From an uncultured bacterium (GTDB lineage Bacteria > Verrucomicrobiota > Kiritimatiellia > CAIKKV01 > CAIJXV01), in NCBI GenBank assembly GCA_903824675.1, contig CAIJXV010000006.1:46695-110694 (forward strand): a DNA stretch of 64,000 bases. The letters run 5' to 3'. This document shows positions 9,721-30,802 of the stretch, piece after piece (the first letter of the stretch is position 1; each line of letters begins with the position of its first letter). The translations under genes and the position numbers were made by a program. The notes below the pieces were generated by a model. The model worked only from the letters and a program-made list of their open reading frames with translations. It was not told the DNA's origin and did no database searches.

Positions 9721-9745
9721 TAGAGTTTGAACAAGGATACAGACC

Positions 9746-10624
9746 ATGCGGATTATATTAACCGGTTCACGGGGCCAGTTGGCTCACGATGTGGGAGATC
9801 GATTGGGACTCGGGAACGAAGTTCGGGGGGTTGATTTGCCGGAGGTGGATATTACCCGGCCGGAGTCGGTTCGTGAATTGATGGACGGTTTTCGTCCTCA
9901 GGTCGTGGTGAATTGTGCCGCTTTTACCCAGGTGGATGCTTGTGAGACTGAGCGGGATCTGTCTTTCGCCGTGAATGCGGTCGGGCCGGGGCTATTGGCC
10001 GAAGAAGCGAAGCGGGTCGGGTCTTACCTGGTTCACATATCCACCGATTACGTCTTTGACGGACAGCGGCCGGCATCGCGCGCCTACATTGAAACCGATT
10101 CGACCGGACCCTTGAGTTGGTATGGCCGGACCAAACTCGAAGGGGAGCAGCGAGTGTTGAATTCAGGCGTTTCGGCGGCGATTCTGCGTACGGCTTGGTT
10201 GTATGGGCGGAAGGGGAAAAATTTCCCCAAGACGATGCTGCGTCTGGCCCTTCGGAATCCGGAACGCGAGTTGAAAGTCGTGGATGATCAGCAGGGGTCG
10301 CCCACCTGGTCCTGGCGCCTGGCGGAACAGATCGAGGCGGTCATCGGTGCGCGGTGCGAAGGGATTTTTCATTCCACCGCGGAAGGGCAGACGGATTGGC
10401 ATGCGTTTGCCCGGTTCTTTTTGGAGGGAATGGCGGTGCCGTTCCAGATGCGGCCGTGTCCGTCATCCGACTATCCGACTCCGGCCCATCGACCGGCCAA
10501 TTCGATCCTGGAAAACAGTCGGTTGAAGGCCCTGGGCTTGAACCGGTTTATCGATTGGCGGGAAGATCTGCAGGAATTTATTCGACGATATCGTATGGAG
10601 TTGATTGAGGAGGCACGGGCATGA
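9746..10624 (+). CDS. rmlD: dTDP-4-dehydrorhamnose reductase
   Basis: [14 protein letters not shown]-terminus, the STDYVFDG motif and a length of 292 aa are characteristic of RmlD/RfbD. Confidence 0.85.
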
Positions 10625-11688: not shown

Positions 11689-13058
11689 GCAATAAAACAA
11701 TCTTCTGTATCGGTGCGGGGTATGTCGGGGGGCCGACCATGGCCATGATTGCCCACAAATGCCCTGACTACAAGGTCATCGTGGGGGATATCGATGATGC
11801 CCGGATCCAGGCTTGGCAATCGGGCCAGCCGCCGATTTACGAGCCGGGCCTGGCAGAGTTGACCCGATCATCCATCGGTCGCAATTTGTTTTTCACGACC
11901 GATATCGCCAAGGGGATTCGGGATGCGGACATTATTTTTGTCTGCATCAACACTCCGACGAAGAGTTTTGGGATGGGCGCCGGTCGGGCGTCGGATCTCC
12001 AATATTGGGAAAAAACCGCGCGTGAAATTTTAGAGCATGCGACCACCGACAAGATCGTGGTGGAAAAAAGCACTTTGCCGGTGCGCACGGCCGAGGCCAT
12101 GGAGCGCATCCTGCGGTCGCGGGGGGGGAAGGTTCGTTTCGAAGTGCTCTCGAATCCGGAATTCCTGGCCGAAGGCACCGCCGTTCACGATTTGGAGATG
12201 CCGGATCGGGTTTTGATCGGTGGGCACGAAACCGAACAGGGCCAGGCCGCGGTTCGGGAATTGGCAAAAATCTATTCGCGCTGGATTCCCCAGGAACGGA
12301 TCCTGACAACGAATGTGTGGTCGAGTGAATTGTCAAAACTGGCGGCCAATGCCTTTCTTGCTCAGCGGATCAGTTCGATCAATAGCTTGTCCGCCCTGTG
12401 CGAAGAGACCGAAGCCGACATTAACGAGATCGCCCGCGCGATCGGGATGGACCAGAGGATTGGCGCGAAGTTTTTGAAGGCCGGGGTTGGATTTGGCGGA
12501 TCGTGTTTCAAAAAAGATATCCTCAACATGGTCTATCTCTGCGAATTTTATGGTTTGCAGGAGGTCGCCGATTACTGGGCGCATGTGGTGGAGATCAATG
12601 ACTACCAGGTCGATCGGTTTGTGCGGAACCTGCTGGTGCATTTATTCAATACCGTGGCGGACAAACGCATTGCCGTTTTGGGTTTTGCCTTCAAGGCCGA
12701 TACCGGGGATACCCGGGAAAGTCCGGCGATTCGGGTGTGCCGGAAATTGGTAGAAGAACGGGCCCGTTTGGTCATCAGTGATCCCCAGGCCCTGGAGAAT
12801 GCCCGACGCGATTTGGCGGATGTGGCCGACCGGATTGAGTTTGAACCCGATCCGTATGTGGCCACCCAGGATGCTCATGCCATTGCCCTGTTGACGGATT
12901 GGGCCGAGTACCGTCATCTCGATTACGAACGTATCTTCAAGGGAATGGTCCAGCCGGCCTTTGTGTTTGACGGGCGGAATTTGCTGGATCATCACAAACT
13001 CTACGAAATCGGATTCAACGTCTATCCCACCGGCAAGGCGCCGATGAGTCATTTATAA
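11685..13058 (+). CDS. ugd: UDP-glucose 6-dehydrogenase
   Basis: GAGYVGG N-terminus and the [10 protein letters not shown] catalytic-cysteine motif. 457 aa. ATGA overlap with rmlB. Confidence 0.9.
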
Positions 13059-15774: not shown

Positions 15775-16308
15775 TTGCTCTGTGAGTGTTATTTTTATGG
15801 GGGTGCCGTGTCGAATATTTCAATTTCTATTTCCCTGATAGAGGATCTTAGTCAGGCATTGCAGGGAGGGGTGCTTGCATCTGCGCCCGCAATTCGGCAA
15901 GTGGCCTCGGCTGAAAGGCGCTGGCGACCTGATTTTGGCGATATTTTCTGGGGAGTATTGGCACGGTTCAATCGTCATCAGAAACACTACGGGATGGTTG
16001 CGGACGATCATCTGGAATGCCCGCCAGTCCGGGTTCCTGTCCAGGGCGAACGTCCGGCTGTGGTCTTCGCTCCCATCACTTCGCTTCGGAATTCCAATCC
16101 CAAAACGATGGTTTTGCCTCCCGGCACCTTGCCGGCTAAAAAAACCGGTAAAAACACCCATGCCGAGGTCAATTCCTATCTCCTTCTGGCCTTGCGCATG
16201 CTCGTGGGTGTGAAAACCGTTACCTCGCAATTCGAACGGGTACGGCGGTTGCCCGATAATTGCATACAAGATGCGCGCCGTGTTCTCAAACGGGATACCC
16301 TCAAATGA
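15775..16308 (+). CDS. Possible small leading ORF of the island operon (hypothetical)
   Basis: Its TGA stop overlaps the ATG at 16305 of the next gene in an ATGA arrangement, suggesting translational coupling. No recognisable motif and the start is uncertain. It could be non-coding leader sequence. Confidence 0.25.
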   Translation: MLCECYFYGGAVSNISISISLIEDLSQALQGGVLASAPAIRQVASAERRWRPDFGDIFWGVLARFNRHQKHYGMVADDHLECPPVRVPVQGERPAVVFAPITSLRNSNPKTMVLPPGTLPAKKTGKNTHAEVNSYLLLALRMLVGVKTVTSQFERVRRLPDNCIQDARRVLKRDTLK

Positions 16309-17399
16309 CTCAGTCTGACGTCGAAACATCCCGGTCTCTGCCGATACGTGCTTGGTTAGAACGACTTATTGACCACGGCGAGGTTGATGAGGTCTTTTAT
16401 GGAGTTTTGATCGAACAGGTTGGGTATATGACCCGGACAACGGCTAGACATATCCGGACAGAAACCACTGAAGATCTGGTTTCGCCGGAAGATTTGGCCG
16501 GCGATTTCCTGCTTCACTTAAAAGCGGAAAACAAGCGCGAAATTCAAACTTTGTCCGGGCTAAAAAGGGAGTTCTCCAAGTTTTTGACCGACCGGAACGA
16601 TCCCGAATCGAAGGAGCTTTGGGAGATCATCAGCGATGCTTTGCACCAGGGAGGGCGTGAAGGGTGGGCTCGGCGCTTGGATGACTTGCATAGTGAAAAG
16701 AATCATAACCAGGCCGTTTGGACATCGGCTTTGCCGGGATGTGATCAAAAAACGTTGGATTTGGCCCAATTCGAACAGAGGGCAAAAAAGATTCCCTGCT
16801 TTTATCCCGGCCGGACAGCGGGACGAATTCTCCCTCCGTCTGATGCGGTTGAATTGATAAGGCGCCTTTTGAAAGAAGCCCAAGTTCCGATTGTATTTAG
16901 CATTCTCTTTAACGAAGCCCGACGCCATGTAGTATTTGGACTCAGATGGGCGGAGGAACTTGGGGAGGAAAGTGAGGCCGAAGATGGCGAAAAACCTCAA
17001 ATCCAACATGCAGATCGAAGTTGGGAGGTGGTGCAATGGGCCAGGGAAGAATCGGCGGAAAGGGGTGATCGGATTTGGTGTGCCATCCAAGCCCTGAAAA
17101 CTGAAAAAGTGCTTTGCCTTTATATACTTCCCAAGCATTTTCTGGGACAGAAACCGACTTTGTCCGGTATGGGCGATTTCCGCCGGACCAGTGAAAATAG
17201 TCTAGAAATCATGTCGATTCTTGCGCAAGAGCTTAAAGTGGAACGACTTAAATCTGATGCGGCACATCAACGGCCTGATGTTATTGACGAGCAAGACGAT
17301 GATTTTATCAAAGCGTGGACGGTAATGATTCACTTTGTAGCCGAACGGCTTTTGGTGAAATGTTCGGAAAAAGGGTTCAACCCGGCCTTATCATCATAA
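16260..17399 (+). CDS. Hypothetical protein (gene A of island operon); acidic patches, no recognisable domain
   Basis: Long ORF of intermediate GC. An alternative start at 16305 (MTQSDVETS) is coupled to the upstream ORF. Glu/Asp-rich segments EEESEAEDGE and DEQDDD. Confidence 0.6.
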   Translation: MHTRCAPCSQTGYPQMTQSDVETSRSLPIRAWLERLIDHGEVDEVFYGVLIEQVGYMTRTTARHIRTETTEDLVSPEDLAGDFLLHLKAENKREIQTLSGLKREFSKFLTDRNDPESKELWEIISDALHQGGREGWARRLDDLHSEKNHNQAVWTSALPGCDQKTLDLAQFEQRAKKIPCFYPGRTAGRILPPSDAVELIRRLLKEAQVPIVFSILFNEARRHVVFGLRWAEELGEESEAEDGEKPQIQHADRSWEVVQWAREESAERGDRIWCAIQALKTEKVLCLYILPKHFLGQKPTLSGMGDFRRTSENSLEIMSILAQELKVERLKSDAAHQRPDVIDEQDDDFIKAWTVMIHFVAERLLVKCSEKGFNPALSS

Positions 17400-17413
17400 C
17401 GGGGGGATTTGAC

Positions 17414-18343
17414 GTGAAAAGTCAGCCTATTCGGCAATTAGAAGGATTATTGAACAGGGTATTGCCGTCCAAAGGCACTCTGGAATCTGTCGAAAACATA
17501 CAAAACATTGGTCCCGGACAAATGTGGTCGACGAAAGCCATCTTGGATTATCCGATTCATTTTGGGGAGCATGAACTGTTTTGGGTCCTGGTAGTTCAAT
17601 CCCGAGTAATGACGCTGAATAAAGAAAGGGTCCATTTGGTTGCCCCACTTTTATCCGATCCGCATCTGGCGGGACCAGAGGATATCATTTTGCCGAAAGA
17701 AATCATGGGGCATCGGGTGGCATTGGCGTGGGGCAGTCGGATAACGGTATTGGAGAAAAGTCTGGACCGGTGTGAGGGTAAACTCCCTAAAAAGTGGTGC
17801 GATGTTGTGGCGCAACTATCCGCAAATGTGGATTTTCATGTTCTCCGGACCTCCGGCATTGAAATGGGATTTGATTATCTGGACAACCATGATATCCGAT
17901 TTGCCTATCATGAGAACTTGGTGGACCGATTGAGTTACCTGCAATCGCCAGTTATACAGGTTGTCTGGCATGAACAAGCGGATGTGATCCGCATGGACAA
18001 ATGGTTCTCCCGAATAGAGCGGGCGAAATGCCAGTCCTTGGCTGCGGCGACGGGAAGTGCTTTCGAAGAAAGTCTCTATTACCGGGTAGTCGGCAAAAAA
18101 CTGGTCATCAAGGTTGTGCTGGCAAGCGACTGGACCCACGTTCAACTGTTGATCCTGAATGAGAAGGGGGAACTCGCCCCTGAACTGGATGGGTGCCAAG
18201 TGGTCAATACGGAAGGCAAGGCTGTCGGAAAGCCCATCAATGATGCGCAGGTATTAATCGATCTAAACGAAATGCGGTGGGGATGGAGTCTGGTGGACAA
18301 AGATGAGACGAGCCGTAAAATCGAGTATCTGCCAAGCCCATGA
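17414..18343 (+). CDS. Hypothetical protein (gene B of island operon)
   Basis: GTG at 17414 preceded by a GGGGGG SD 7 nt upstream; the track's earlier ATG at 17315 would overlap gene A. The stop TGA overlaps the ATG of gene C (ATGA). Confidence 0.55.
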   Translation: MKSQPIRQLEGLLNRVLPSKGTLESVENIQNIGPGQMWSTKAILDYPIHFGEHELFWVLVVQSRVMTLNKERVHLVAPLLSDPHLAGPEDIILPKEIMGHRVALAWGSRITVLEKSLDRCEGKLPKKWCDVVAQLSANVDFHVLRTSGIEMGFDYLDNHDIRFAYHENLVDRLSYLQSPVIQVVWHEQADVIRMDKWFSRIERAKCQSLAAATGSAFEESLYYRVVGKKLVIKVVLASDWTHVQLLILNEKGELAPELDGCQVVNTEGKAVGKPINDAQVLIDLNEMRWGWSLVDKDETSRKIEYLPSP

Positions 18344-20400
18344 AATTCCCTCCCTTCAGTTATGCCGCTTTACACGAAGAATTACGACTCCACCCTGACT
18401 CCGTATCCGTTTTTACGACAATGGAACTGAAGCACTTGACGCGGATTCCCCCTATCGATCATTCACTTGCCGAGGTGCTAACCGCCGAGGCCATCTATCG
18501 GGAATCAATCAGTCGGTTCTCGGGTGAGTTTATGAGCGAGATCGAGCGTTTGTCGTGCGTGGATGATTATCAACGCATTAAAACAGCCTGGGGTGTAAAA
18601 GGCGAACCCAAATTGGAACATTTCGGGGACTGTCTGCGGGGCCTGGTGTCGGATCCGGTCGCACAGAGAGCCGGAGAACGCCTAGCCACCTTTTGGATGG
18701 CCGACGGGTTGATTCCCGTAGTTTGTAAGCGAGCCGGTGCTTGCGAAGCAATCCCCATCCCGTTTTGTTTACGGTTTGAGACAAGTGTGCACCCGGGAGC
18801 GATTGATTTGGCGGAATGTCCGATTCCGAAATGGGAGCAGGGAGTCCGGGTTTTACGCAAAGAACTGAAGGAACCGGGATTGGTCATTCAAGTATTGCAT
18901 GCGTTGGGACCGCGCGTGAACAACTTGCATGGAAACAGCTTCCAGTTACCGGTTTGTCTGGCGTATGCCCAGAAAAAGGGACGGGTGTCCGGTCGGGAAG
19001 TATTTCACTTTTTGGCCACTGGGGCGGTAAGTGCCGGGTGTATTCGCAAGGTCGACGCACTGGATGAAAAGTTGATCTTGGCGCGGAAACTGGGGCTTGT
19101 CTTTGTGGGTCCGGGGCTGGCGGAGGGCGAGGGCTTGTTCCCGATACAATCTGGGGCTCCATTGATTGCCGTTTGGTCCGCTTTAGGACAAAACGCATTG
19201 AGCGTTGGGCGCGTCAGGATTACGGGGCCCGCGTTAATGGACCTGATCCGGTGTTTGAGGGATGATTTGCATAATGGTGCGGTTTCATTGAAGGACGCAT
19301 CCCGAAAATGGGCTGTTTATACCCGGTATCTGAGCAAACTGGAGGCGGATTCGCCCTACCGCCAGGAAGCTCAACTGGAGCTGGTGCTTTTGAAAGGGGT
19401 AATTCAAACCCATTCAGGAAGTGCGTCCAAAGCTGTTCGCAGCCTGGCAAAGGCGTTTAAAACTGCGATCACATCAGGTGTTGATAATTTAAGCCTGATC
19501 AAGTTGATGGCCCATCAGATTGTCGCCTTAACCGACATCGGTCGATTTGAAGCAGCTGAGGTTTGGGGTTGTCGCGCCCGCCGAGAGTTGGGAAAAAAAT
19601 TCCGAGGGAAGGCGGAGGACCGTATCCGAGCGAAAATGACGCTAAATGGCGTATTGGGAGGGCAGGTGTTTCTGCAAAAAGGCTTACTGAAGTCTGAATA
19701 TGCGTCCCAAAGCCGAGTAATGTTGGTAAAGGCGCTGGAAGATGCTTGTCACCTACGGGAAACCCGAGAAATTCTGCGGGACAGGGTGCAACTCTATTTA
19801 TGGGAAGCTCTTTATAGGCCGGCCGATGCCCTATTGAATTATAGGGGGGTGGAGCAAGATTTATTAAAAGTGACTCCTGACGACCGATGGATGGCGCATC
19901 AATATCTGAAACGGCATCGCTGGCTGGCGGCCTATCGCCTGATTTTAAGCGGACTGAAAACGGAAGGACAACCTGAAGAATGGGATCTTCCGGAACCTAT
20001 GGTGGGGCCAGCCGGTTGGATTCGAGCGACGGCCTTGAAATATAGAGCCACTTGGCGAGCACGGTTGGGCGACTATGTCGGGGCCAAGACCGATTTTGAT
20101 GCGAGTCTTGGGCCTTGGACGCACATGATCGGCAAAAGGCGAATCATCATTTGCCGGGAGCCCTTGATTAGGTTCATTTCAGGCACCATTGCACATGAAG
20201 CGTGTCGATCCTTATCCGACTCAAATGCCAGGGCGAGCCGAGAATACCGAGATATTGCCGACATGCTATTCGAAGGGTGCATTCCAGCCCGACTAAAGGG
20301 ACCATTTTCGGCTCGACAATGGCAGGTAATGAATGCAAAAGAGTGGGTAAATCGGTCGCAGCCTGTTCGGCCGGATTTGCGCTGCCAAATAGTCTATTGA
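18340..20400 (+). CDS. Protein with Lon-like (S16) Ser-Lys protease domain, no ATPase motif, long helical C-terminal region
   Basis: Residues ~198-255, HGNSFQLPVCLAYA...GREVFHFLATGAVSAGCIRKVDALDEKLILARKLGLVFVGP, align with the Lon proteolytic core DGPSAG...[36 protein letters not shown]. Ser200 is at nt 18937-18939 and Lys244 at nt 19069-19071. No Walker A in the protein. 686 aa. Confidence 0.6.
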   Translation: MKFPPFSYAALHEELRLHPDSVSVFTTMELKHLTRIPPIDHSLAEVLTAEAIYRESISRFSGEFMSEIERLSCVDDYQRIKTAWGVKGEPKLEHFGDCLRGLVSDPVAQRAGERLATFWMADGLIPVVCKRAGACEAIPIPFCLRFETSVHPGAIDLAECPIPKWEQGVRVLRKELKEPGLVIQVLHALGPRVNNLHGNSFQLPVCLAYAQKKGRVSGREVFHFLATGAVSAGCIRKVDALDEKLILARKLGLVFVGPGLAEGEGLFPIQSGAPLIAVWSALGQNALSVGRVRITGPALMDLIRCLRDDLHNGAVSLKDASRKWAVYTRYLSKLEADSPYRQEAQLELVLLKGVIQTHSGSASKAVRSLAKAFKTAITSGVDNLSLIKLMAHQIVALTDIGRFEAAEVWGCRARRELGKKFRGKAEDRIRAKMTLNGVLGGQVFLQKGLLKSEYASQSRVMLVKALEDACHLRETREILRDRVQLYLWEALYRPADALLNYRGVEQDLLKVTPDDRWMAHQYLKRHRWLAAYRLILSGLKTEGQPEEWDLPEPMVGPAGWIRATALKYRATWRARLGDYVGAKTDFDASLGPWTHMIGKRRIIICREPLIRFISGTIAHEACRSLSDSNARASREYRDIADMLFEGCIPARLKGPFSARQWQVMNAKEWVNRSQPVRPDLRCQIVY

Positions 20401-20409
20401 GGTTCAGCG

Positions 20410-21255
20410 ATGAAAGATCAGTCCGATCCCAAGGTGCTGGTGCCCGAAAGTTTTCGATTAGCATCAGACTACATGTATGGAATTGAGATTGCGTTGCGAG
20501 AATTGATCATCGAAGTAATGGATGCAGATCCAAGCCATGGTCGACTATGGTATCTAAAGTTGGAACCTGCACGTGACGTAGTGAAAAAGATGCGAGAAGC
20601 GAGAACCGATCAACTTCGCAACCGGCATATCCAATTCATCGCCTATCACCCCATCTATTACACGGATTTTCCCGATTTGCGAAAATTGTTTGAAAGTAGA
20701 CTTGTCTGGCCTCGATTTGAGCGATATTTATGGGGAAAAGAAGCATTTCTTGGCGACTTGGAAAAACTTGAACCAATTCGGAATTCGATAGCCCACCATC
20801 GTCCGGTTCCACATTCAACGGTCGAAATTATTGCTCCTGTATGGAATATGCTAAAAAATCGACTGGGTGAAGAGAAGATAAAACTCTGGGTACAGAGGCC
20901 GACGGTTGTTGAAAATATTAGGGAGAAATTAAACCACATCAACCAAGAAATTCACAAAACATGGGAAGTGATCTCCCAGAAAGAGTGCCAACTGCCGGAT
21001 ATATTAGAAGTCCGAGACTGTGTAGCTGCTTGGTGGTTCACACGGGAGTACTTGCTGCCAGATAAGGAAGAAATACCGGAATTTGATAGTATTTTAAAAT
21101 ATTTCAATAAATTGTCGGAATATAATCAAAACATTCCCTTCCATGAACGAGGATACGTCATCAAGATTCGCAAATGGGTCGGCGAAAACAAAATTGACGA
21201 ACTTGTTACTAATGCCGAATCCGTAATGGTGGAGGCCCTTAATGGCTGGGGGTGA
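20410..21255 (+). CDS. HEPN-domain protein, Abi_2 (AbiD/AbiF)- or Swt1-like
   Basis: LEPIRNSIAHHRPV contains the Rx4HH HEPN RNase motif (R124, H129, H130; nt 20779-20799). 281 aa, similar in size to Abi_2 proteins. AGG-rich SD upstream. Confidence 0.6.
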   Translation: MKDQSDPKVLVPESFRLASDYMYGIEIALRELIIEVMDADPSHGRLWYLKLEPARDVVKKMREARTDQLRNRHIQFIAYHPIYYTDFPDLRKLFESRLVWPRFERYLWGKEAFLGDLEKLEPIRNSIAHHRPVPHSTVEIIAPVWNMLKNRLGEEKIKLWVQRPTVVENIREKLNHINQEIHKTWEVISQKECQLPDILEVRDCVAAWWFTREYLLPDKEEIPEFDSILKYFNKLSEYNQNIPFHERGYVIKIRKWVGENKIDELVTNAESVMVEALNGWG

Positions 21256-21258
21256 AAG

Positions 21259-24048
21259 ATGAATATTTCGGACTTTGAAAAAAACAATAATACAATAGAA
21301 AATGATTTAACAAGGGCAATTAAAGAAACCCCTAACCCCTTTAATCCACATTCGCCAGTTGAAGATCCCGAATTACTAGTCGGCAGGCAAGCGTTATTGC
21401 TGGAAATTGACATGCAGTTGAAAGAGTGTCATGAAACAAGACGTTTTCGACATGTCATTGTTTCAGGGGAGCGCGGATCAGGTAAAACCAGTCTTATGCA
21501 GGTGATTGCGCAAAAGTATTATAAGAAACAGTGTTTATGCCAAATTAAAATTGAATCCGACACGAGCCTGCGCGATCCGCTTTTGTTTCGGCAGATATTT
21601 CGCAAATTAATTGAAAGTCTTTTTAGTCAGACGTCGGAACGTTCGCGCGATATATCATCAATATTTCGCGGAAAGACTGATAAAGTATTTCAAAGAACCA
21701 TTAGTGATCTCGAAAAATATAGTCCCGGAATAAAGGACCAGGTTTTTGCCTTTCCAGAAATATACTTCGAAACCAAGGACATACAGGCAGATGCAATGTT
21801 TGAGATTAAAAAAGCCCTTAAAGCGGATATTGCCATTATCGCTGATAACTTGAATGTCCCACTTTTTATTCTGGTAGACGCTTTTGGAGGGGCCGAAACA
21901 AATGCTGAATTTATTTGCATTCTAGTGTCCCTATTTGAAAAGGTCAATAACGTTTGCCTTTTGACTATTGCTTCTGCTGAAACGATTCAGGTGTTGCACA
22001 ATAAATCAGAAACGCTCATTCGAACCGCAAAGAAATATGACATGCCTCCCTTGACGGCTGATGATATTCGCGCCTTATTTGTAAAAACTTTACTTCAAAA
22101 AGATTTATTTAGAGAATCCATTCAAAAAGCTTTGGCGACGACGAAATGGGATGTCGCCAGTTGTGTGGAATTTTCGCCGTTTTGGGGTGAGTTCAAGTAT
22201 CAAATAAAACCCGAATTAATCGCGCAATGTGCGCAGGGCAACCCATATCTTACAATGATGATGCTTTATGTTGCCTTCAAGAAAGCGAAGGCGACAGATA
22301 ACAAGGTAATTGCTTTTGATGCTGAGGTCTTAAAGGATGTTTTTGTTGAATTGCAATACGATCAGAAATATCAACCTTATCAAAAAACCTTTACGTGGAT
22401 CAAATCATTGGGTTCTCGTAAGCGACTTCTTTTAAGTTTTTTGCTGCAAATTAGGACGCCCATTAAACTCGAAGATCTTTTTGCATTTGAACTTTTGATT
22501 CACCATGAGGATTTTGTCGTCAGGAACGAACTTCTTACGGCATACAGAGATTTCTGCCGACAAGGTGCTATACGCGAGAATACGGACGGCACATTTAGTG
22601 TGATGCTGAATAGCATTGAATGCGCCTATTTGACCCTATTTCAAGCTAACGACTTGAATGATTTTCGATTTTATAAAAACTTGACTGATTTTGTTTCCTC
22701 GGAATTACTTGGCCAACTACTTCGCCCTAAGTCTTCGTCGCTGATAAGTCGAAGAACCCAGTTTGAGGAATTCATCGAATTGCTAGAACGTGAAGCCCAA
22801 TTTCACCCTGACTTTATCCCCCTCATTAGTAAAGTTAGATATAAAGATGCTCTAGATGTGCTGTCTATGGATATAGATCAATCTGGGAATTCCAATATTC
22901 CTTTGCACACTGCTTCTGGCCGTTGTGCAATCTTGGCGTTCCCTAGGTGGACAGAATCAGTAAACCATCCCAAATCAAATTATAAAGATATACCCTTTGC
23001 TCAGGCTCTCTCTCAGATTCGAAATTCGGCAGACTGCAAAAACTTAATGCGCAGTAATCTTTGGGGTTTAAAATGGTGCATCGAGTATGAACGCCTGGAA
23101 GATGAAGCTGGGGTTCGTTCGGAAATCCCGTGGCTTCTCCCTTTTTTGTATTTATCATTGCAGATGCCTCGCATTCCAGTTCTGACAATTAAAGCGAGCT
23201 TTTCAGAGCGTCGCATTGAAATCGTCGCGAGTTGGATGGCGGCTTTACAAGGTGAAGAATCAATAGAGGATTCCATTCAGCCTCGCCTTGAGCAGCTTAA
23301 GGCTAATGCACTGTTAGCCAGTGTGGAGTTGTCTTGCTCATGGGAATATTATGAACCATTGTATCTACATGATCTACCGGATTCATTTTATGAGATGTCA
23401 CTCTATCACCCAGAGTATGAGAAGTACCACAATAATTCAAAGCGGGAAGGCCCTTTTGTCAAGGAACAACTATACCATTTCGGGGCACTCCTGGCTGATT
23501 CGTGGGTTCATATCTGCGCACAACGAAAGTTTCGTGAGATAGAGATCTTCTTGACGCACTACTCAAGACTTATAATTCTTCCGGACGTCCAAAGATATCT
23601 TAGCTTTCAAGAATATGATAAGTCTTTGCTCACCTGTCAGATCGAGTTCTCATTAATTGTTGCGGGTCGGTATGACTTGGCGACTGAACTTATTTCTGTC
23701 TTGTTGCCACATTTCAAGGATCCCGTGTTTTTGGCTCTAACACATTATGGGCTAGCATTAATTGCATTGTGCCAAAGCAAATTCGATGTCGTAGTTTCGG
23801 AATTAGCTGAAATCCGCTGTCTTATTTCTTTGCACGCTAATGATTTTAAGCGATTCACTGAGGCCGTTTCAGCTCATGACTTCGCCAAATATTCGTCCGC
23901 CAAAGAAGGTTGTTTCAGCACATATTTCTTTATTCCTCTTCCTAAGGTCGAAAACGGCGAGATCGTTTTTGCTATTTCTAATGCCGCGGACTTCACGGCC
24001 GTTTGTGATTCGGTCGATACGGCAGTTAGAAGGAAGCCAGCTCGATAA
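21259..24048 (+). CDS. STAND / AAA_16-type P-loop NTPase with ~650 aa helical C-terminal (sensor-like) region
   Basis: ELLVGRQALLLEIDMQL...HVIVSGERGSGKTSLMQ is an AAA_16-style N-terminus with Walker A at aa 70-77. The Walker B-like motif is VPLFILVDAFGG. 929 aa, conspicuously AT-rich coding sequence. Confidence 0.7.
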   Translation: MNISDFEKNNNTIENDLTRAIKETPNPFNPHSPVEDPELLVGRQALLLEIDMQLKECHETRRFRHVIVSGERGSGKTSLMQVIAQKYYKKQCLCQIKIESDTSLRDPLLFRQIFRKLIESLFSQTSERSRDISSIFRGKTDKVFQRTISDLEKYSPGIKDQVFAFPEIYFETKDIQADAMFEIKKALKADIAIIADNLNVPLFILVDAFGGAETNAEFICILVSLFEKVNNVCLLTIASAETIQVLHNKSETLIRTAKKYDMPPLTADDIRALFVKTLLQKDLFRESIQKALATTKWDVASCVEFSPFWGEFKYQIKPELIAQCAQGNPYLTMMMLYVAFKKAKATDNKVIAFDAEVLKDVFVELQYDQKYQPYQKTFTWIKSLGSRKRLLLSFLLQIRTPIKLEDLFAFELLIHHEDFVVRNELLTAYRDFCRQGAIRENTDGTFSVMLNSIECAYLTLFQANDLNDFRFYKNLTDFVSSELLGQLLRPKSSSLISRRTQFEEFIELLEREAQFHPDFIPLISKVRYKDALDVLSMDIDQSGNSNIPLHTASGRCAILAFPRWTESVNHPKSNYKDIPFAQALSQIRNSADCKNLMRSNLWGLKWCIEYERLEDEAGVRSEIPWLLPFLYLSLQMPRIPVLTIKASFSERRIEIVASWMAALQGEESIEDSIQPRLEQLKANALLASVELSCSWEYYEPLYLHDLPDSFYEMSLYHPEYEKYHNNSKREGPFVKEQLYHFGALLADSWVHICAQRKFREIEIFLTHYSRLIILPDVQRYLSFQEYDKSLLTCQIEFSLIVAGRYDLATELISVLLPHFKDPVFLALTHYGLALIALCQSKFDVVVSELAEIRCLISLHANDFKRFTEAVSAHDFAKYSSAKEGCFSTYFFIPLPKVENGEIVFAISNAADFTAVCDSVDTAVRRKPAR

Positions 24049-24197
24049 GGGGCTCCGTATTGGCCTCGCTGGCCCTTTGATTGTTCGGGATATGATTCTC
24101 CTTCTCCGCCAACTTTCTTGAATGGTGCTAATGTGATATACACAATTAGCATACATGGAGACGGCGACAGTAAACCCATTGTGCCACACTGATGGAA

Positions 24198-26336
24198 TTA
24201 CGAATAATTGAATGGCAATAAACGGGCGATGTCGCTGGCCGACGAAATATCCGAACCTTTGAGGATATCTGAAAACTGGTCTATCCCGCCCCATGCTTTC
24301 AGGTACGATGCAAATGGCGTGGACTGTGCGATGAGGCTTTCTGTCCAAGACAGGCATTCCTGGAAGTGTTTTGCATGCGATTGATTGTCTCCGCGAATCT
24401 TGTTGATGACGGTGATCAATCCCAATTGGGATAAACCAATGGTTTGCACCGTAAAGTGTAACTTCTTGGATATGCTGACACCTTGAGCCAAGATCTGAGT
24501 AGCAGATTCATATTGTTGGGCTTGTAAAAACAAATACCCGATCCACTTGCAGAGATGTTCGCATGGATGATCTTCGAATATGCGGGTCTTCCACGTATCC
24601 CAAATGGCTGCCGTCATGTTTTTGTCAATAGGGATGACGTCAGCGGCCACTGCGTCGCAATGGGCCGAAGCGATTCGAAGATAATTGATCGCATTGAATG
24701 GGGAGAGATTCGGGGTTGTCATGATTTCAGGTAGTCTCGAAACTAAATCTGCCGGAGTTGCAACAGGATTATTCCCTGAATGCCTGTTCATTTCAGCGCA
24801 GGCGCGGTTGAGATCGTCCGATTGCCAGGCCAGGGTTGCCAGATAGTTTGCCGACATTGAATAATATGAAATACCAGAGGGGAAATGTTTGATGCTTTTT
24901 TCGAAATATGCGCGAGCCATGTCTCCCCAGGCGGGATCCGTCCGCGCTAGAAAAGCGCAGGCTTGGCCCAGTGATCCTTGCATTTGGCCCAGAAGTTCAT
25001 CAGGTTCATCCGCTGGCACTTCGGCTTCGCGGCGGTCGACATCATCGCTGAACGTGGTTAGCACCTCTTCGAATCGGTAATCATTGAAAAGATAATTGAG
25101 ATTTCGGTTTCGGATTTCCAGTAAACGTTCTTTTCGCGTGTTGTGAGTTCCGGGTAGTAAATTCATCTGTTGTTGAAGCAATGTTGTCAGGCGGGTTTCA
25201 ATGTCTTTTTGCGGATTAACGTTGCCTTGGTGATTATGGCAGGCGGCAAGATCACTCAGACCATCTGCCAGATAATTTGCCCAAACACGTTGATTTTCGA
25301 TGGAACCCTTCGCCCTCAGGTTGGCCTCGGCGATGTCGGTCAATTGATGAAGGAGTTTCTTTGCACCATCCAGATTTCCGGGTTCACGAGTGCGGCTAGC
25401 GATGAGAAAGCGGGTATAGGCGAGTAATGCGGATGTTTCGCGCATGAGTATCTGACTGTCGTCTTCGCGTTTTAGAGCCTGGATCAAGCGGGAATAATCG
25501 GGATGCCCTTCTGTAGTCGGTAAATAACGCCGCAAATAATCGGCGGTCGTTGCGTACTGTTTGTTCTCCAAAAGGCGCGCGACTTCGTGATCGTAATGCC
25601 GGCGATAGTCGCCAAACATGAATTCATCGGGATTAGTTCGCTCGACTATTGTCCCGTCTGGTGTTTTTTTGCCGCCGCGCAGAAGACAGCATACGAAGTC
25701 CGCTGCGATGAGGCCTGGATTCCGATCCCCAATACCCCACCGTAATAATAATCGATTTTCGGCATTCAATCTTCTGGTGAATGAGATGGCTGGCGAGTCG
25801 CCAGAAAGGATCTGGTCTTTGATATAGTCCAATAGGCGAGGCATGTAGTCGGGATAGTTTGAGTTGATGGTTTCTGCGATGGTTCGTTGTGCAACCATTA
25901 TTTCCACAGAATCAGCATTTGGGCATCGCGTGAAGAGTGTTTCCAGAGCCTTTCGCGTAGCGGCAACCAAATTCAAGACATAAGTGGCCTGCGGAGAAGT
26001 CTCAAATCGCTTGCCGGTATTTCTTGATGCGAAAAAAAAAGCACTTGAACCGCAGATGCCTGTAAAAACGGCATTTGTGAAGGCTTCGAGATCCCGCCTT
26101 GACACTGGGCCGGCGACTCGGAGGTGGCCTTCTAACAACTTGCCGCAATGATAATGATCGGGATAGATGAATTTAATGCGGGAATTTGAGTTAAAAGCTG
26201 AAAGTTGGTCGACATGCAATGCCTTCCACGCCTGATCATCAAGGGTGCTACAGATGCCCCCTACAAGAGAAGATGCCTTTCGAGTGATCCCTTCATCAAA
26301 GGAGCCGCTCTCGTCTATGAAAATGAAATATTTCAC
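24198..26336 (-). CDS. DUF3800 N-terminal domain protein with long TPR-like helical C-terminus
   Basis: The N-terminus MKYFIFIDESGSFD matches the characteristic DUF3800 start (M.Y..IDESG). 712 aa, AT-richer than flanking genes, convergent with the STAND gene. Confidence 0.55.
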   Translation of the reverse strand: MKYFIFIDESGSFDEGITRKASSLVGGICSTLDDQAWKALHVDQLSAFNSNSRIKFIYPDHYHCGKLLEGHLRVAGPVSRRDLEAFTNAVFTGICGSSAFFFASRNTGKRFETSPQATYVLNLVAATRKALETLFTRCPNADSVEIMVAQRTIAETINSNYPDYMPRLLDYIKDQILSGDSPAISFTRRLNAENRLLLRWGIGDRNPGLIAADFVCCLLRGGKKTPDGTIVERTNPDEFMFGDYRRHYDHEVARLLENKQYATTADYLRRYLPTTEGHPDYSRLIQALKREDDSQILMRETSALLAYTRFLIASRTREPGNLDGAKKLLHQLTDIAEANLRAKGSIENQRVWANYLADGLSDLAACHNHQGNVNPQKDIETRLTTLLQQQMNLLPGTHNTRKERLLEIRNRNLNYLFNDYRFEEVLTTFSDDVDRREAEVPADEPDELLGQMQGSLGQACAFLARTDPAWGDMARAYFEKSIKHFPSGISYYSMSANYLATLAWQSDDLNRACAEMNRHSGNNPVATPADLVSRLPEIMTTPNLSPFNAINYLRIASAHCDAVAADVIPIDKNMTAAIWDTWKTRIFEDHPCEHLCKWIGYLFLQAQQYESATQILAQGVSISKKLHFTVQTIGLSQLGLITVINKIRGDNQSHAKHFQECLSWTESLIAQSTPFASYLKAWGGIDQFSDILKGSDISSASDIARLLPFNYS

Positions 26337-26609
26337 GGATTAAACACCTTATATCTTTGTTAGTTACTGATATTGCGGAATTCCCCTTCCCAGCGCAAGT
26401 TCGTTCTTTGAACCCTCTATACAACGGGACGAATTTCCAAGGAGGATTATTTGGGCAATTTCATCGGAAAAGTTGTTAGACGTCGGCTTCCAGTAATTTG
26501 CAACGTCTGCGATTGAATTCTAGCTACAAATGAAGATTTACCTGATGAAAACGATTTTAGGCCTTGGTTTCTGGTTCGGGTTGGTGGCGTTGTTGGTTTG
26601 GGAGGAACT

Positions 26610-28862
26610 GTGAAAAACGTATCTTCATATCGAGAAATACTGATCAATAAGACATGCCTGACCCGCGACCAATCGGCGATGATCGGGGCTTTGTCTCAAT
26701 TTTTTGATTCTGATCAAAGCCGGGTCTTTCTTCTCAAGGGTTATGCCGGAACGGGGAAAACCTATATCCTCCGGCAGATCGCCGAAGCCCTGTCGGTCGC
26801 GAAACTGCCGTTCTGTCTGCTGACCCCCACGGGGCGTGCGGCGCGTATCCTGGGTAAACGCACCGGCTTCCCCGCGCGGACCATTCATAGCCTGATGTAT
26901 GCCATGAACCAGGTACGGGAATATGAAAAAGATGAGGAGCGCTTTCAACTCCACTTCGAATTGTCCGATCCCAGTGGGATCGATAGCCGGATGGTTTTTC
27001 TGGTGGATGAGTCGTCCCTGATTGGCGATCGGGAAGGTGAACAGGAATTCTTGCGGTTTGGGTCGGGTCGCTTGCTCAAGGATTTTATTGATTATACGCG
27101 GGTGGGAGTGTCAGGGCTGGAAACGCGGATCGTATTTGCGGGGGATCCGGCCCAATTGCCGCCGGTGAATGATAACATTTCGCCGGCATTGTCGTCCGAA
27201 TATTTGAAGAAGACGCACAATTTGGTGGCCCAAACAGCGGAATTAACCGAGGTGGTGCGGCAGAAGGGTGGAAGTCCGGTTCTGCGCGTGGCTACGGAAT
27301 TGCGCAATAGTCTAGCGAATGGCCGGGTTAACAAGCTGGCGGTACCGGAGGAACCACCGGCCATCCGGTCAATCCAGCCCGCGGACGCCTCGAAATTGAT
27401 CGCGGAGGCATGTCGGGTGGATGCGATGGCGGAGGAGGTGCTGGTGACCTACAGCAATGAACTGGCGTTGAAATACAACCAGGCGGTGCGCGGTCATCTG
27501 TATGGGAATGAACAGGCTTCGGTACGGGTGGGGGACCGGGTGATGGTGAACACCAACAATCCGTGTTGGGGCCTGATGAACGGTGATTTTGCGGCGTTGC
27601 TAGGTGTCGCGCCTGAGCCCGAGATCCGTCAGGTTGCAGTTCGGGGGCAGGACGTCCAGGCGCTCATCTTCCGACGGGTGACGGCGGGTTGGCTGAATGC
27701 GGAGAACCAGCCGGTGCGACTGGAATGCTTGGTGATGGAAAATCTGCTGGATTCGCGCGAGCGGGATTTGACCCGGCCGGAAATGATGGCGCTCTACGTG
27801 GATTTCAAGAATCGGAATCCAGATCTGAAGCCACACACGCGCGATTTTGAGACGGCGCTACGGGCAGATGAGTATTTCAACGCGTTACGGGTGAAATATG
27901 GTTATGCGGTGACCTGCCACAAGGCGCAGGGTGGGGAGTGGGACCGGGTGATCGTGGACTTTCGGACCGGGGGAGGGTGGTCAAATCCCGCGTATTTTCG
28001 CTGGTGCTATACGGCTATAACGCGGGCCCGGAGTGAATTGCTGACGATCAATGCGCCGCAGTTTGTCCATTCCTGGGTGGGAATTCGGCGGGTGGGGGTG
28101 GGGAAAGGGGAGGGGAAGTTGTTGGTTGCTGCGGTGTTGGTTGATAGCGGGGAGGATGAAGGGATGGAGCGGAAGCCAAAGTGCTCGGTGGATGAAGCGA
28201 GCGGTGAGATCAGTGCGGGAACGCCCGGCTGTACCGGGGAACAACAAGATGAAGACAAGGCCGGCTGGCCGGGGGTCAAGTGGGCAGAGGGACATGAGCC
28301 GTTGAAACTTAAAGCCAATTGCTTTGCGGCGATGTTGCGGGCACAGGGTTTCGAGGTGGGTGTGCTGGAGCATGGCAACTATTTTGAACGGTACACAATT
28401 ATGGACGGCGCGAGACCGATCAAAATCCAGGTCTATTACGATGGAAGGATGCGATTCCGTGTACCCCAGCCGATGCCCCGCGGCAAGGTTTCGGTGGATG
28501 ATCCGGCTTTTAAGAAAATCGCAGCGTTATTCCTGTCGGCGATCCCCGAGGATGGCGGAATGGCTGAGGAAGGGGCCAAACCCCAAGCGGTTGAGTTGCG
28601 GGCAAAACTGGAGGAATTGCGGGCGCAGGGAGTGGATGTGTTGCGGCTGGATAGCGGGGAATATGTGGATCGGGTGACCTTGCGTCGGGAAACGTCGGTG
28701 GCTGAGGTGGATTTTTATCATGATCGCAAAGGGCGTTATACATCCTGGCAGATCATGCCGACCCGCGATCCTGAATTTCGGGGATGGTTGACCGGCCGGA
28801 TCGAGGATTTACTGATGACGCCGGAACAAAGTGCCGTGCAAGGTGTGGATTTACTGGAATGA
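26610..28862 (+). CDS. RecD/TraA-like SF1B DNA helicase (AAA_30 + UvrD_C_2) with ~270 aa C-terminal extension
   Basis: Walker A LLKGYAGTGKTY, Walker B FLVDESSLIG, motif FAGDPAQLPPV, and VTCHKAQGGEWDRVIV. Start uncertain (GTG at 26610 with GGAGG upstream; the track used TTG at 26598). Confidence 0.8.
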   Translation: MKNVSSYREILINKTCLTRDQSAMIGALSQFFDSDQSRVFLLKGYAGTGKTYILRQIAEALSVAKLPFCLLTPTGRAARILGKRTGFPARTIHSLMYAMNQVREYEKDEERFQLHFELSDPSGIDSRMVFLVDESSLIGDREGEQEFLRFGSGRLLKDFIDYTRVGVSGLETRIVFAGDPAQLPPVNDNISPALSSEYLKKTHNLVAQTAELTEVVRQKGGSPVLRVATELRNSLANGRVNKLAVPEEPPAIRSIQPADASKLIAEACRVDAMAEEVLVTYSNELALKYNQAVRGHLYGNEQASVRVGDRVMVNTNNPCWGLMNGDFAALLGVAPEPEIRQVAVRGQDVQALIFRRVTAGWLNAENQPVRLECLVMENLLDSRERDLTRPEMMALYVDFKNRNPDLKPHTRDFETALRADEYFNALRVKYGYAVTCHKAQGGEWDRVIVDFRTGGGWSNPAYFRWCYTAITRARSELLTINAPQFVHSWVGIRRVGVGKGEGKLLVAAVLVDSGEDEGMERKPKCSVDEASGEISAGTPGCTGEQQDEDKAGWPGVKWAEGHEPLKLKANCFAAMLRAQGFEVGVLEHGNYFERYTIMDGARPIKIQVYYDGRMRFRVPQPMPRGKVSVDDPAFKKIAALFLSAIPEDGGMAEEGAKPQAVELRAKLEELRAQGVDVLRLDSGEYVDRVTLRRETSVAEVDFYHDRKGRYTSWQIMPTRDPEFRGWLTGRIEDLLMTPEQSAVQGVDLLE

Positions 28863-28876
28863 CGGGATGATGAGCG

Positions 28877-30802
28877 ATGAACGAGGTAAAAACCATATTT
28901 CAGATGCGCCGTGAGGGACGATTGGCTGAAGCCCTTGAAATGGCTCGAACCTTTTGCGTCGCGAACCCGGCGGATTCCTGGGGTGTGAAGGCGCTGGCCT
29001 GGGTTCTGCGCGACCTTATTCTCGGTTGCCTGAAAGCGAAGGATCGGTCCGGTGCAACGGATTTATATCTGGAATTCGCACAATTACCCATTGGGGAAGA
29101 TGATATCGTCTTGGTCCAGACGGCCGATTGGCTGAAGAGTGCCGTGGACGATCCGGTGCGGCCGCTGTTGGACCAGGCAAAGCAATCTCAGGAAGCGGGC
29201 GATTTGGGTGCAAGTCTCGCGATTCTGCGGGATGTGGTTAGGCAGTATCCGCAATCGGAGCAGGCCCGGTCAGCGTTGGGGTGGGCGATTTACCGGGTCT
29301 TACACGCGATGGGACGGGAAGAGCATCCTGACCGACAGGCGGTTCTATCCTATTTGCGGGAATATCGAGCATTGTTTCCCCAACCCAAACCAGGCACGTT
29401 ACACTCGGCGATTCTGAATGCCGCCACCAAGCTGAGCGATGACTTGCCGCAATTTCCCCGTTTCTTTTTGTGGTGGGGTCCGGATAACTTTCAGACGGAG
29501 GATGCCCGGCCATTTTGCCCAAAGGATTCAGATCAGACATTTCCGAGCCTGGTTGAAAAAACGATCAAGGCGCTGTATCGCACCTGTAAAGGGCTTGAGG
29601 ACCTGGAAGTCGTGGGGCGGTGTGCTGATTTTGTAAAACTCTGGTTGCCGCGGTTTCCTGAGCAAGAATGGTTTGGGTATTATTACGGCCGGATGCTTAT
29701 TTTCGCGGGGCGGCTGGAGGAGGCGCGGGGGTACTTGATGCCGATCATTCGCAAGAAGCAGTCGGAATTCTGGGCTTGGGCGGCACTGGCCGACACCTTT
29801 GGGGAAGCGGCTCATGAAGAGCGGGTGACGTGTCTCTGTCAGGCGGCCCGGTGCCCTATTCATGACGAGTCCTTCAAAGTTGGGGTCCACACGGCGCTGG
29901 CTGAATTGCTGGCCCGGATGAATAAGAAGTCCGAAGCCCGTTGGGAACTCCAGACGGTGGTGAAGATCCGCGCCGAGAAGTGGTGGAAAATAACATCCGA
30001 AATTCAGGCGATGCAGGCAGCTGATTGGGCGGTGGGTGAGCCGGCGGATGACGGGAATCAGTCCTTATACGAGGAGTATGGGGCTCGGGCCTCATCCATT
30101 TTATGCGAAGGGTTGCCGTGGGAAAATGCCATCGTATTGGAAGTGTCAGAGGCCCGACCGTCTGATGGGCCGGAGCGGCGAGCCGTGCCGCCACTGGTGA
30201 TGATTGGATTAGGGAAAGGACCGCGTTTGACGACGCTCCGATTAAAACAGAATTTTTCGAGGGCAACGCGTGACGCACGGGTGGGGATGCCGGTGCGGAT
30301 CCGGCAAGATCAGGCGATGGAACACCCGTCCGTGATGGCGTTCGAATCGCGGGTCGGTACGGATTGGGATCTGCTTCCCGAACGGGCAGGGATCGTATTG
30401 TCGAATTCGGATGAGCGAGGGCTGACGATCATTTATCTCGGAGGCGATGAAGTAGTTTTTCTTTACCATGATCGGCTGCCGGAAGTCCAGGCCTATGAAG
30501 TGGGTGAATTTGTGAAAGTGCGGGTGATTTGGAATGAGCGGTCCGCTCGATTCAAGTGGCTGACCGTGGCTCTGGATTTGACTCCCTCGCCGGTGGCATG
30601 GTGCCGTGAGTTTGCGGACTCGGTTCGCCTGTCGGCCAACGGGGGGTTTGGCTTTGCGGGGGATGTATTTATCCAGCCCGGCTTGGTCAGCGAACAGGGG
30701 GTGACGGATGGATGCCAGGTGCGGGGAAGAGCGATTTTGCGCAAGAAACCGAACCGGGGCGAGTTGGGTTGGCAGGCGGTGACTGTGGCGGTGAAAGCGT
30801 AA
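28877..30802 (+). CDS. Large helical-repeat (TPR-like) protein with C-terminal beta-rich (OB-like?) region, unknown function
   Basis: 641 aa ORF starting 14 nt after the helicase stop. The N-terminal 400 aa are predicted helical repeats. No catalytic motif recognised. Confidence 0.5.
   Translation: MNEVKTIFQMRREGRLAEALEMARTFCVANPADSWGVKALAWVLRDLILGCLKAKDRSGATDLYLEFAQLPIGEDDIVLVQTADWLKSAVDDPVRPLLDQAKQSQEAGDLGASLAILRDVVRQYPQSEQARSALGWAIYRVLHAMGREEHPDRQAVLSYLREYRALFPQPKPGTLHSAILNAATKLSDDLPQFPRFFLWWGPDNFQTEDARPFCPKDSDQTFPSLVEKTIKALYRTCKGLEDLEVVGRCADFVKLWLPRFPEQEWFGYYYGRMLIFAGRLEEARGYLMPIIRKKQSEFWAWAALADTFGEAAHEERVTCLCQAARCPIHDESFKVGVHTALAELLARMNKKSEARWELQTVVKIRAEKWWKITSEIQAMQAADWAVGEPADDGNQSLYEEYGARASSILCEGLPWENAIVLEVSEARPSDGPERRAVPPLVMIGLGKGPRLTTLRLKQNFSRATRDARVGMPVRIRQDQAMEHPSVMAFESRVGTDWDLLPERAGIVLSNSDERGLTIIYLGGDEVVFLYHDRLPEVQAYEVGEFVKVRVIWNERSARFKWLTVALDLTPSPVAWCREFADSVRLSANGGFGFAGDVFIQPGLVSEQGVTDGCQVRGRAILRKKPNRGELGWQAVTVAVKA

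Follow-up and report, generated by a model that had tools for sequence, protein, structure and literature searches.

A Swt1-like HEPN gene with an obligatory P-loop NTPase partner: a probable two-gene defence cassette in an uncultured Kiritimatiellia bacterium

The locus described here raises the question whether a small HEPN gene acts as an RNase toxin of its own or as one half of a larger system. The gene lies on the forward (+) strand of a 64,000-nucleotide stretch of DNA, hereafter the window, from an uncultured bacterium of the Kiritimatiellia (contig CAIJXV010000006.1, positions 46,695 to 110,694), where the open reading frame (ORF) at 20410–21255 encodes 281 residues in 281 codons, with an ATG start and an uninterrupted frame. 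An earlier note, made from the letters alone, had described its product as a putative HEPN RNase toxin of Abi_2/Swt1-like type, coupled to a STAND NTPase gene downstream. The answer that we consider probable is that the HEPN gene and the NTPase gene that follows it at 21259–24048 make up a horizontally acquired defence cassette, a split Avs-like arrangement in which the NTPase would be the sensor and the Swt1-like HEPN protein the effector. All positions given below are those of the window, on the + strand unless marked otherwise.

We begin with the family to which the protein belongs. Searching 5.8 billion protein clusters with phmmer returned 70 homologues (26–39% identity, E 4e-32 to 3e-9), most of which carry PF18731 (HEPN_Swt1) and some of which go by the NCBI name 'Swt1 family HEPN domain-containing protein'. 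The alignment used throughout holds 42 sequences, the window protein and 41 homologues at 26–37% identity, and all 41 aligned homologues, scanned singly, match PF18731 with a best E of 2.6e-12. The window protein itself has no PF18731 match at E ≤ 1 in a direct Pfam scan, and its match to Abi_2 (PF07751), best over no more than residues 18–66, reaches 17.9 bits (E 0.004) where gathering demands 25.6, Abi_2 being matched at E ≤ 0.01 by 14 of the 42 family members. The PADLOC model PDC-M34B, a Swt1-type HEPN model, matches the window protein over residues 22–139 with E 3e-10, and PDC-M34B models match 42 of the 42 aligned sequences (best E 1e-25). The family profile scores the window protein at 255 bits, a profile that itself includes the window sequence. 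Within NCBIfam the window protein finds DS-11 alone (residues 86–133, E 0.058, not significant), and three family homologues have no NCBIfam match; PDB sequences, searched with the window protein and with the profile of the family, yielded no relevant match and did not yield AbiF. When 1.84 billion representatives were scanned in full with HMMER, the family came to 241 clusters at E ≤ 1e-30, and the 4960 matches at E ≤ 1e-3 in the same scan represent the wider Swt1-type HEPN domain. By transitive homology, then, the window protein is best classed as a real but divergent Swt1-like HEPN protein rather than an Abi_2 one, because the Abi_2 gathering threshold is not reached and the non-coding RNA (ncRNA) of AbiF-type systems is absent. 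The Pfam searches that the earlier note had proposed (PF07751 and other HEPN profiles) thus uphold the Swt1-like half of its double label through the homologues and leave the Abi_2 half below threshold. For annotation the lesson is that a clear HEPN_Swt1 relative can fall under Pfam thresholds.

The motif on which the first description was built is present. The ORF encodes LEPIRNSIAHHRPV, with R124 at 20779–20781 and H130 ending at 20799, and in the alignment this becomes the catalytic-type HEPN motif R124-N-S-I-A-H129-H-R131, an Rx4H motif followed by an invariant Arg (20779–20802). An Rx4H motif by itself would prove nothing, because the loose pattern has 422 matches in the six frames of the window, in which the strict form RNxxAH occurs once; its weight comes from conservation. 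Sixteen positions are invariant in the 42 sequences: E26, R30, E31, D56, Y83, D86, F87, W100, F103, R124, N125, A128, H129, R131, P243 and G248. Judged by the other 41 sequences alone there are 17 invariant positions, and the window protein retains 16 of them, the sole change being N99V. The invariant residues gather in a helix-1 patch, IExxLRE (20485–20502; E26, R30 and E31), in the catalytic motif, and in the most conserved block of the family, HxPIYYxDFPDL...NW..F at residues 79–103 (20644–20718; Y83, D86, F87, W100 and F103), where the window protein has its Val at N99. Position 130 is Asn in most homologues, so that of the RNxxAH(H) signature claimed before the RNxxAH core is a family property and the second His is not. 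The note had named an unconserved motif, or want of an HEPN profile match, as the finding that would speak against it, and what was found is five invariant residues in the motif and PF18731 in every aligned homologue. In substance the note was right.

The structure prediction accords with this assignment and adds a domain. In the AlphaFold2 model (pLDDT 90.4) the product falls into a Swt1-like HEPN domain at the N-terminus and a bundle of four helices at the C-terminus. The HEPN domain, at approximately residues 13–152 (20446–20865), is predicted as an all-alpha up-down helical bundle with helices at 13–39, 55–70, 110–128 and 135–152, the second and third of them separated by a conserved insert. 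Among structural matches of the model, the solved dimer of AbiF HEPN bound to ncRNA (PDB 8vz6) ranks best. Foldseek with the full-length model found nothing significant in the PDB. Residues 153–281 (20866–21252), which carry conserved WWFD and LPRxRGxG motifs, were not recognised as a second conserved domain in the earlier note, which dealt with the HEPN part only. Modelled separately they again form a four-helix bundle (pLDDT 88.7) whose structural matches are generic bundles only, with no HEPN proteins among the top ones, and no Pfam model covers them. We propose that this domain is a docking or regulatory module for the NTPase.

That there is an NTPase to dock on is the most constant feature of the family. 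An NTPase gene lies directly 3' of the HEPN gene in every related locus examined, that is in the window and in 28 loci elsewhere. Among 23 genome loci with full-length HEPN relatives the next ORF starts at −59 to +18 nt in 19, and in all but one of the 23 the downstream ORF matches the window NTPase by blastp over residues ~26–460 or part of these, with E 1e-9 to 1e-21 in 19 and more weakly for the truncated ORFs of two loci (L013 and L008); in the exception (L021), where only 61 residues precede the contig end, the match is seen by tblastn. Six metagenome loci have the same gene arrangement (L001, L002, L049, L050, the near-identical pair L051/L052, and L053). Where intact and clear of a contig end the partner ORF has ~740–840 residues, and in many loci the two genes overlap by 4–59 nt. 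Over 17 loci the pairwise identities of HEPN and NTPase proteins correlate with r = 0.92 (Mantel test, 0 of 2000 permutations), and because of this correlation we take the pair to be inherited and transferred as one unit. The best 150 family representatives have 149–340 residues, and none of them is fused to an NTPase. The tight link to the downstream gene that had been noted from the window alone is therefore a property of the family: the gap is 3 nt in the window, and the gene order is kept in 28 of 28 related loci.

The two proteins are not always both intact. The NTPase is called as ORFs of 495 and 250 aa in L051/L052 (9774–12010), as ORFs of 347, 210 and 82 aa in L053 (9815–11886), and as a truncated ORF of 495 aa in L007, in each case beside an intact HEPN gene, and in L022 it is the HEPN match that is split over two frames; frameshifts or decay of the cassette are the probable causes. 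Another branch is seen in Nostocales, where an HEPN-domain-only relative is the third gene in a row that starts with a type I-like methyltransferase and continues with a specificity subunit (L027, 2931–6465; L043, 2470–6016), and where in one locus (L033, 3940–6462) HEPN is fused to the C-terminus of a methyltransferase to give 840 aa. These loci point to a branch of the Swt1-type HEPN domain that is linked to restriction-modification (R-M).

Returning to the window, the arrangement of the pair can be read directly from the sequence. A GAGG resembling a ribosome-binding site (20399–20402) lies 7 nt 5' of the HEPN ATG and overlaps the TGA (20398–20400) of an upstream 686-aa ORF, and a second such element, GGGGG (21248–21252), lies 7–11 nt before the NTPase ATG, within the 3' end of the HEPN gene. 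As this GGGGG run is inside the end of the HEPN gene, it suggests that translation of the two genes is coupled. Intergenic space amounts to 9 nt upstream of the HEPN gene and 3 nt downstream of it, the NTPase gene starting at 21259, 3 nt past the HEPN TGA stop; scans for promoters and terminators did no better than on shuffled sequence. The base composition of the pair is foreign to its surroundings, with 42.9% GC in the HEPN gene and 41.1% in the NTPase gene against 55.3% in the window, and with a GC content at third codon positions of 0.43 and 0.40 against ~0.67 in three flanking core genes. The richness in A and T that the earlier note had judged by eye is hereby given numbers.

What sort of NTPase is the partner? 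The gene at 21259–24048 encodes a P-loop NTPase of 929 aa that is AAA_16/ORC-Cdc6/STAND-like. When 18 partner proteins from elsewhere were turned into a hidden Markov model (HMM), this matched residues 20–443 of the window NTPase with E 5.5e-37. In Pfam it comes close to AAA_16 (31.3 bits, cut-off 32.6, E 3e-7), NACHT (23.2 bits, cut-off 26.7, E 7e-5) and nSTAND3 (20.8 bits, cut-off 27.2, E 3e-4), lies just under threshold for ATPase_2, and passes the cut-off for BrxC_BrxD only, with 23.8 bits against 22.2. No Avs model of PADLOC matches it at E ≤ 1, nor any of 10 partners at E ≤ 0.01, and PDB profile searches with the partner family gave TPR repeats and P-loop noise, with ORC4/Cdc6 at E > 0.02 only. 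The name 'STAND NTPase' under which the gene had been introduced therefore holds as to the P-loop NTPase, Walker A being intact, and is approximate as to STAND, the STAND-type Pfam models being sub-threshold. Aligning the partners places an N-terminal family motif, NPYDFxNPV, before the P-loop, with NPFNPHSPV in the window protein (residues 26–34, 21334–21360); Walker A follows as GERGSGKTS (residues 70–78, 21466–21492; G70, R72, G75, K76, T77 and S78 invariant), and Walker B as ILVDA (residues 204–208, 21868–21882), in which D207 is retained and the next residue, the catalytic Glu of 16 of 16 aligned partners, is Ala (E208A). A conserved Arg, R255, is retained as well. STAND proteins are marked by a GxP motif in the helical domain that follows the core of the NTPase; here it reads GGRPYE in the family and QGNPYL in the window (residues 326–331, 22234–22251), with P329 and Y330 invariant and G327 conserved in at least 90%.

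The remainder of the protein is less well conserved. Residues ~444–786 (22588–23616) form a divergent, expanded middle region with no detectable similarity to the partners when compared with an HMM of their middle regions, and from the occupancy profile it accounts for most of the ~180 aa by which the window NTPase exceeds them. A weak TPR-like region (residues 787–843, 23617–23787) then follows, aligned with the TPR stretch of the partners and scoring 13.3 bits with the partner C-terminal HMM where 20 shuffled sequences score 0 or less. In the partners themselves TPR is plain: eight of 10 scanned have TPR matches in Pfam at E ≤ 0.001 near residues 600–700, and five of the 10 have TPR_2, TPR_12 and TPR_10 above their cut-offs. 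Two public gene models exist for the window protein, of which P0072 (850 aa) starts at M80 and so misses the N-terminal motif and Walker A, and P0207 has all 929 aa (the added part at 21259–21496). The homology of the partners begins at residue ~20–26, which supports the long model as the right one, and a second lesson for annotation is that a public model can cut off a P-loop.

The window copy is an outlier, and asymmetrically so: its HEPN protein is almost fully conserved (16 of 17 positions, as above), and of 50 positions at which 16 partners never vary, its NTPase retains only 22 and has altered 28. Identity of the window NTPase to the other partners is 18%, against 38% among those partners, and in the 5.8 billion clusters nothing lies close to it apart from other gene calls, or a fragment, of this very protein in its own 90%-identity cluster. 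Two explanations may be offered, a deep branch that has been rewired, possibly into a binding-only switch with a new sensor, or a protein that is drifting. The intact frame of 929 codons favours the first.

Where the cassette is found, and among which genes, bears on what it may do. Its hosts include Chloroflexota, Acidobacteriota, Nostocales (cyanobacteria), a deltaproteobacterium, Alphaproteobacteria, Calditrichota, Eremiobacterota, Dormiibacterota, Aerophobus and an Archaeoglobaceae archaeon, and its neighbourhoods differ wholly from locus to locus. A type I R-M system and a reverse transcriptase adjoin it in one metagenome locus (L002), ParE toxins and a resolvase fragment lie near it in L051/L052, and mraZ/mur genes are its neighbours in L053. 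The locus L050 is a clean example of horizontal mobility, the pair (9001–12067) being inserted within a purine biosynthesis operon that is contiguous but for it, with purL-like genes upstream and SAICAR synthase, AIRC and GARS downstream. PADLOC gives strong matches for a handful of the 122 flanking ORFs of 21 loci, namely a type I methyltransferase with specificity subunit, SIR2 (1e-152), PDC-M70A/B, a DruE-like protein and type II methyltransferases, which lends support but gives no figure for enrichment. Within the window the pair sits in an island of lower GC at ~16–31 kb (0.40–0.53 in 16000–27000 against 0.55–0.60 in the flanks), bordered by rhamnose, UDP-glucose (nucleotide-sugar) and heptosyltransferase genes at 9.7–15.6 kb and by sugar-kinase and aldolase genes at 32–35 kb. 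Neither border has a tRNA gene, the single one of the window being at 50.5 kb, and the island ORFs scanned with Pfam, a scan that left out short ORFs at 31–32 kb, contain no integrase domain.

From these data a working scheme may be drawn up. The product of the first gene, with its intact Rx4H site and its four-helix C-terminal domain, would be the effector, a Swt1-like HEPN endoribonuclease, and that of the second, with its AAA_16/ORC-Cdc6/STAND-like core, variable middle and C-terminal TPR-like region, would be both sensor and switch. An infection cue would be recognised by the NTPase via its variable and TPR parts; its nucleotide state would then change and the protein would oligomerise; HEPN protomers, bound via their C-terminal domain, would be brought together or released; two Rx4H sites would form a composite active site; and the resulting RNase would cut cellular and/or phage RNA and abort the infection. 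Ligand-induced oligomerisation activates the N-terminal effectors of STAND/Avs proteins (PMC13581612), and dimeric composite active sites are known from HEPN RNases (PMC3710099, PMC13092281). For the interface, the HEPN C-terminal bundle and the N-terminal peptide of the NTPase (NPYDFxNPV) are the obvious candidates. We prefer to speak of a regulated effector rather than, as was done before, of a toxin; no antitoxin-type partner (MNT or ncRNA) is present. Several observations weigh against a defence cassette of this kind. The window HEPN protein is below every Pfam gathering threshold, and its NTPase is without the Walker B Glu and has lost 28 of 50 family-invariant positions, so that signalling by this copy may be altered or defective. 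At many loci the cassette has neighbours with housekeeping functions (the pur operon, mur/mraZ, secDF), and no relative of it is found on IMG/VR viral contigs. Neither protein, finally, matches an experimentally validated defence model above noise, the PADLOC matches of the NTPases being weak P-loop ones (BrxD, SngB, mad8).

Other readings must be set beside this one. A more specific version, which we put forward tentatively, is an unnamed two-component immune system with Avs signalling in trans, in which the WWFD/LPRxRGxG adaptor would dock on NPYDFxNPV and the window copy would belong to a deep branch that evolves fast, with a hydrolysis-dead, binding-only switch (E208A) and a new sensor insert of ~340 residues. 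It is unlikely that the NTPase is instead a keeper of the RNase, in a PARIS-like or toxin-antitoxin-like scheme of sequestration and release where it silences the HEPN protein until a cue, or its own loss, frees the latter to dimerise and cleave RNA. Strict pairing, often with translational coupling and overlapping genes, and the co-divergence of the two proteins would suit such a scheme, as would the need of a free HEPN RNase for a neutraliser where MNT and ncRNA are both missing; a TPR sensor with a P-loop switch is, however, more elaborate than a simple antitoxin, and the truncated or split NTPases beside intact HEPN genes (L007, L051/L052, L053) count mildly against it unless those HEPN copies are inactive. 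Somewhat less likely again is that the window copy is a decaying or rewired relic, its HEPN protein intact and its NTPase no longer hydrolysing NTP and perhaps no longer regulating HEPN. This is what E208A, the unequal conservation of the two proteins, the low identity to the partners and the want of close relatives would suggest, but 929 codons free of stops in DNA of 41% GC argue for purifying selection, and the protein retains its Walker A motif, D207 of Walker B, R255 and the GxP motif. Nucleotide binding without hydrolysis might, moreover, suffice for switch signalling.

Two further explanations dispense with immunity or with the partner. The pair might be a regulated module for RNA processing or stress, for instance one that cleaves specific cellular RNAs according to NTP state, or else a selfish addiction module without benefit against phage. 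We hold this to be improbable, even with the housekeeping surroundings of many loci, the missing relatives on viral contigs and the lack of a validated defence homologue in its favour: the cassette is spread patchily over phyla and into an archaeon, its base composition is foreign to the window, it decays in some loci, and R-M, TOTE, SIR2 and PDC-M70 genes adjoin it, a combination typical of mobile defence or conflict cassettes and unlike conserved housekeeping functions. AbiD/F proteins are described as phage-defence-associated HEPN ribonucleases, and an ncRNA (Rfam RF03085) co-occurs with AbiF-type HEPN (PMC12165695), which brings up a stand-alone HEPN protein of this type, controlled by an ncRNA encoded in cis and with the NTPase gene as an unrelated neighbour. 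The AbiF dimer with ncRNA is the best structural match, and the weak Abi_2 match of the window protein, with matches at E ≤ 0.01 in 14 of the 42 family members, points the same way; these stand against an Abi_2 score below gathering level, the failure of profile searches of PDB sequences to find AbiF, and an NTPase gene that none of the 28 related loci lacks and whose divergence follows that of HEPN. Searching 15–31 kb of the window with Rfam gave no match to RF03085 or to any other family at E ≤ 1, except for an unrelated weak sRNA at 30.9 kb, and the 9 and 3 nt around the gene offer no intergenic space, on which grounds control by an ncRNA was rejected. This explanation is largely refuted and very improbable. 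The HEPN-MNT (HepT/MntA) type of toxin-antitoxin system was considered and rejected as well, neither neighbour, the upstream 686-aa ORF or the downstream P-loop NTPase, having a nucleotidyltransferase match.

The defence cassette that we favour shares its island with several other genes. Downstream, at 26598–30802 (+), lies a two-gene TOTE conflict system, of which the first gene encodes a 754-aa RecD-like SF1 helicase with a TBP-TOTE domain (PADLOC PDC-M16A, E 9e-197) and the second a 641-aa protein with DUF7017, TPR and S1CSD-TOTE-2 domains. Between the two systems a 712-aa ORF (24198–26336, −) runs convergent with the NTPase gene and belongs to no family of Pfam, PADLOC or NCBIfam; its N-terminus, MKYFIFIDESGSF, resembles the 'IDESG' start of the DUF3800 type, for which Pfam gave no confirmation. 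Directly 5' of the HEPN gene three tightly packed or overlapping ORFs of 379, 342 and 686 aa occupy 16260–20400 (+) with an intermediate GC content of 49–53%, and none of the three has a Pfam or NCBIfam family. The 686-aa protein has faint Lon/SAVED-type matches in PADLOC (E ~2e-3) and one distant homologue among the 5.8 billion clusters. We rejected this block as a member of the cassette, tblastn with the 686-aa protein being negative in 48 of 48 related loci and the homologue being the only one; it may be another orphan defence-island module.

If defence is confirmed, the pair would provide a case of an HEPN RNase controlled in trans by a STAND/ORC-like sensor, and a compact and widespread module (~240 clusters at 50% identity, drawn from bacteria and from one archaeon or more) would join the catalogue of defence systems. 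It would also be a tractable pair for the study of effector recruitment, the adaptor domain and the N-terminal motif of the NTPase being short and sharply conserved.

How does the cassette compare with systems already described? We found no description of the split form in PADLOC, NCBIfam or the literature searched, coverage of the latter being limited, so that it may be described elsewhere. With the Swt1-like HEPN proteins at large (PF18731; Abi2/Swt1 clade, Anantharaman et al. 2013, PMC3710099) it shares the Rx4H motif with Asn after Arg and the HEPN helical bundle, to which the window subfamily adds the 130-residue C-terminal four-helix domain and strict pairing with an NTPase; in eukaryotes, Swt1 combines a PIN domain with an HEPN domain that is probably inactive (PMC3710099). 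AbiD/AbiF (Abi_2; PDB 8vz6) resemble it weakly at the profile level, below threshold, and differ in partner and in their ncRNA. DS-11, a single CBS+HEPN protein with HEPN-dependent phage defence (PMC13092281), is faintly similar near Rx4H, but is regulated by a fused CBS domain and not, as we propose for the cassette, by a separate NTPase gene. The match to PDC-M34 (component B) is restricted to the HEPN domain, the profiles being 147–192 positions long, and PDC-M34B models also match R-M-linked and methyltransferase-fused HEPN proteins, so that they serve as general models of the Swt1-type HEPN domain. For this reason, and because PDC-M34A was found neither in the window neighbours, nor in 10 partner NTPases, nor in ten proteins, HEPN ones and a few neighbours, from other Swt1-HEPN loci, we rejected the idea that the cassette is PDC-M34.

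Closer parallels join an HEPN domain of this clade to an ATPase. The HmaC/DUF499 ATPases of the Hma ('type 1 BREX-related') systems (Ava_2192; PMC3710099, PMC12839542) likewise combine Swt1-clade HEPN with an ORC-Cdc6/STAND-type AAA+ ATPase, and it is BrxC_BrxD that is the sole above-threshold Pfam match of the window NTPase. The cassette differs in having no methyltransferase or helicase partners, no DUF499 match, TPR instead of wHTH/RRM, and HEPN and ATPase on separate genes. Swt1-like HEPN is also known fused to STAND-ATPase, TPR and S1 domains as well as to DUF499 ATPases (PMC3710099, PMC12839542), and the HEPN-STAND-ATPase-TPR(-S1) fusions (Npun_F6454, MED222_16016, Desac_1927; PMC3710099) have the same parts as the cassette, a Swt1-type HEPN, a P-loop NTPase and TPR, a likeness drawn by description. 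Avs proteins are single polypeptides of effector, STAND and sensor, whereas effector and NTPase are separate genes in the window and in all related loci. The cassette is an uncharacterised, conserved variant of a known design rather than a new principle: predictions of HEPN effectors, of STAND sensors and of fusions between them date from 2013, and the logic that we expect of it, activation of the effector by sensor-driven oligomerisation, would equal that of the fusions and of Avs (PMC13581612), with the effector made as a separate polypeptide that carries an adaptor-like domain.

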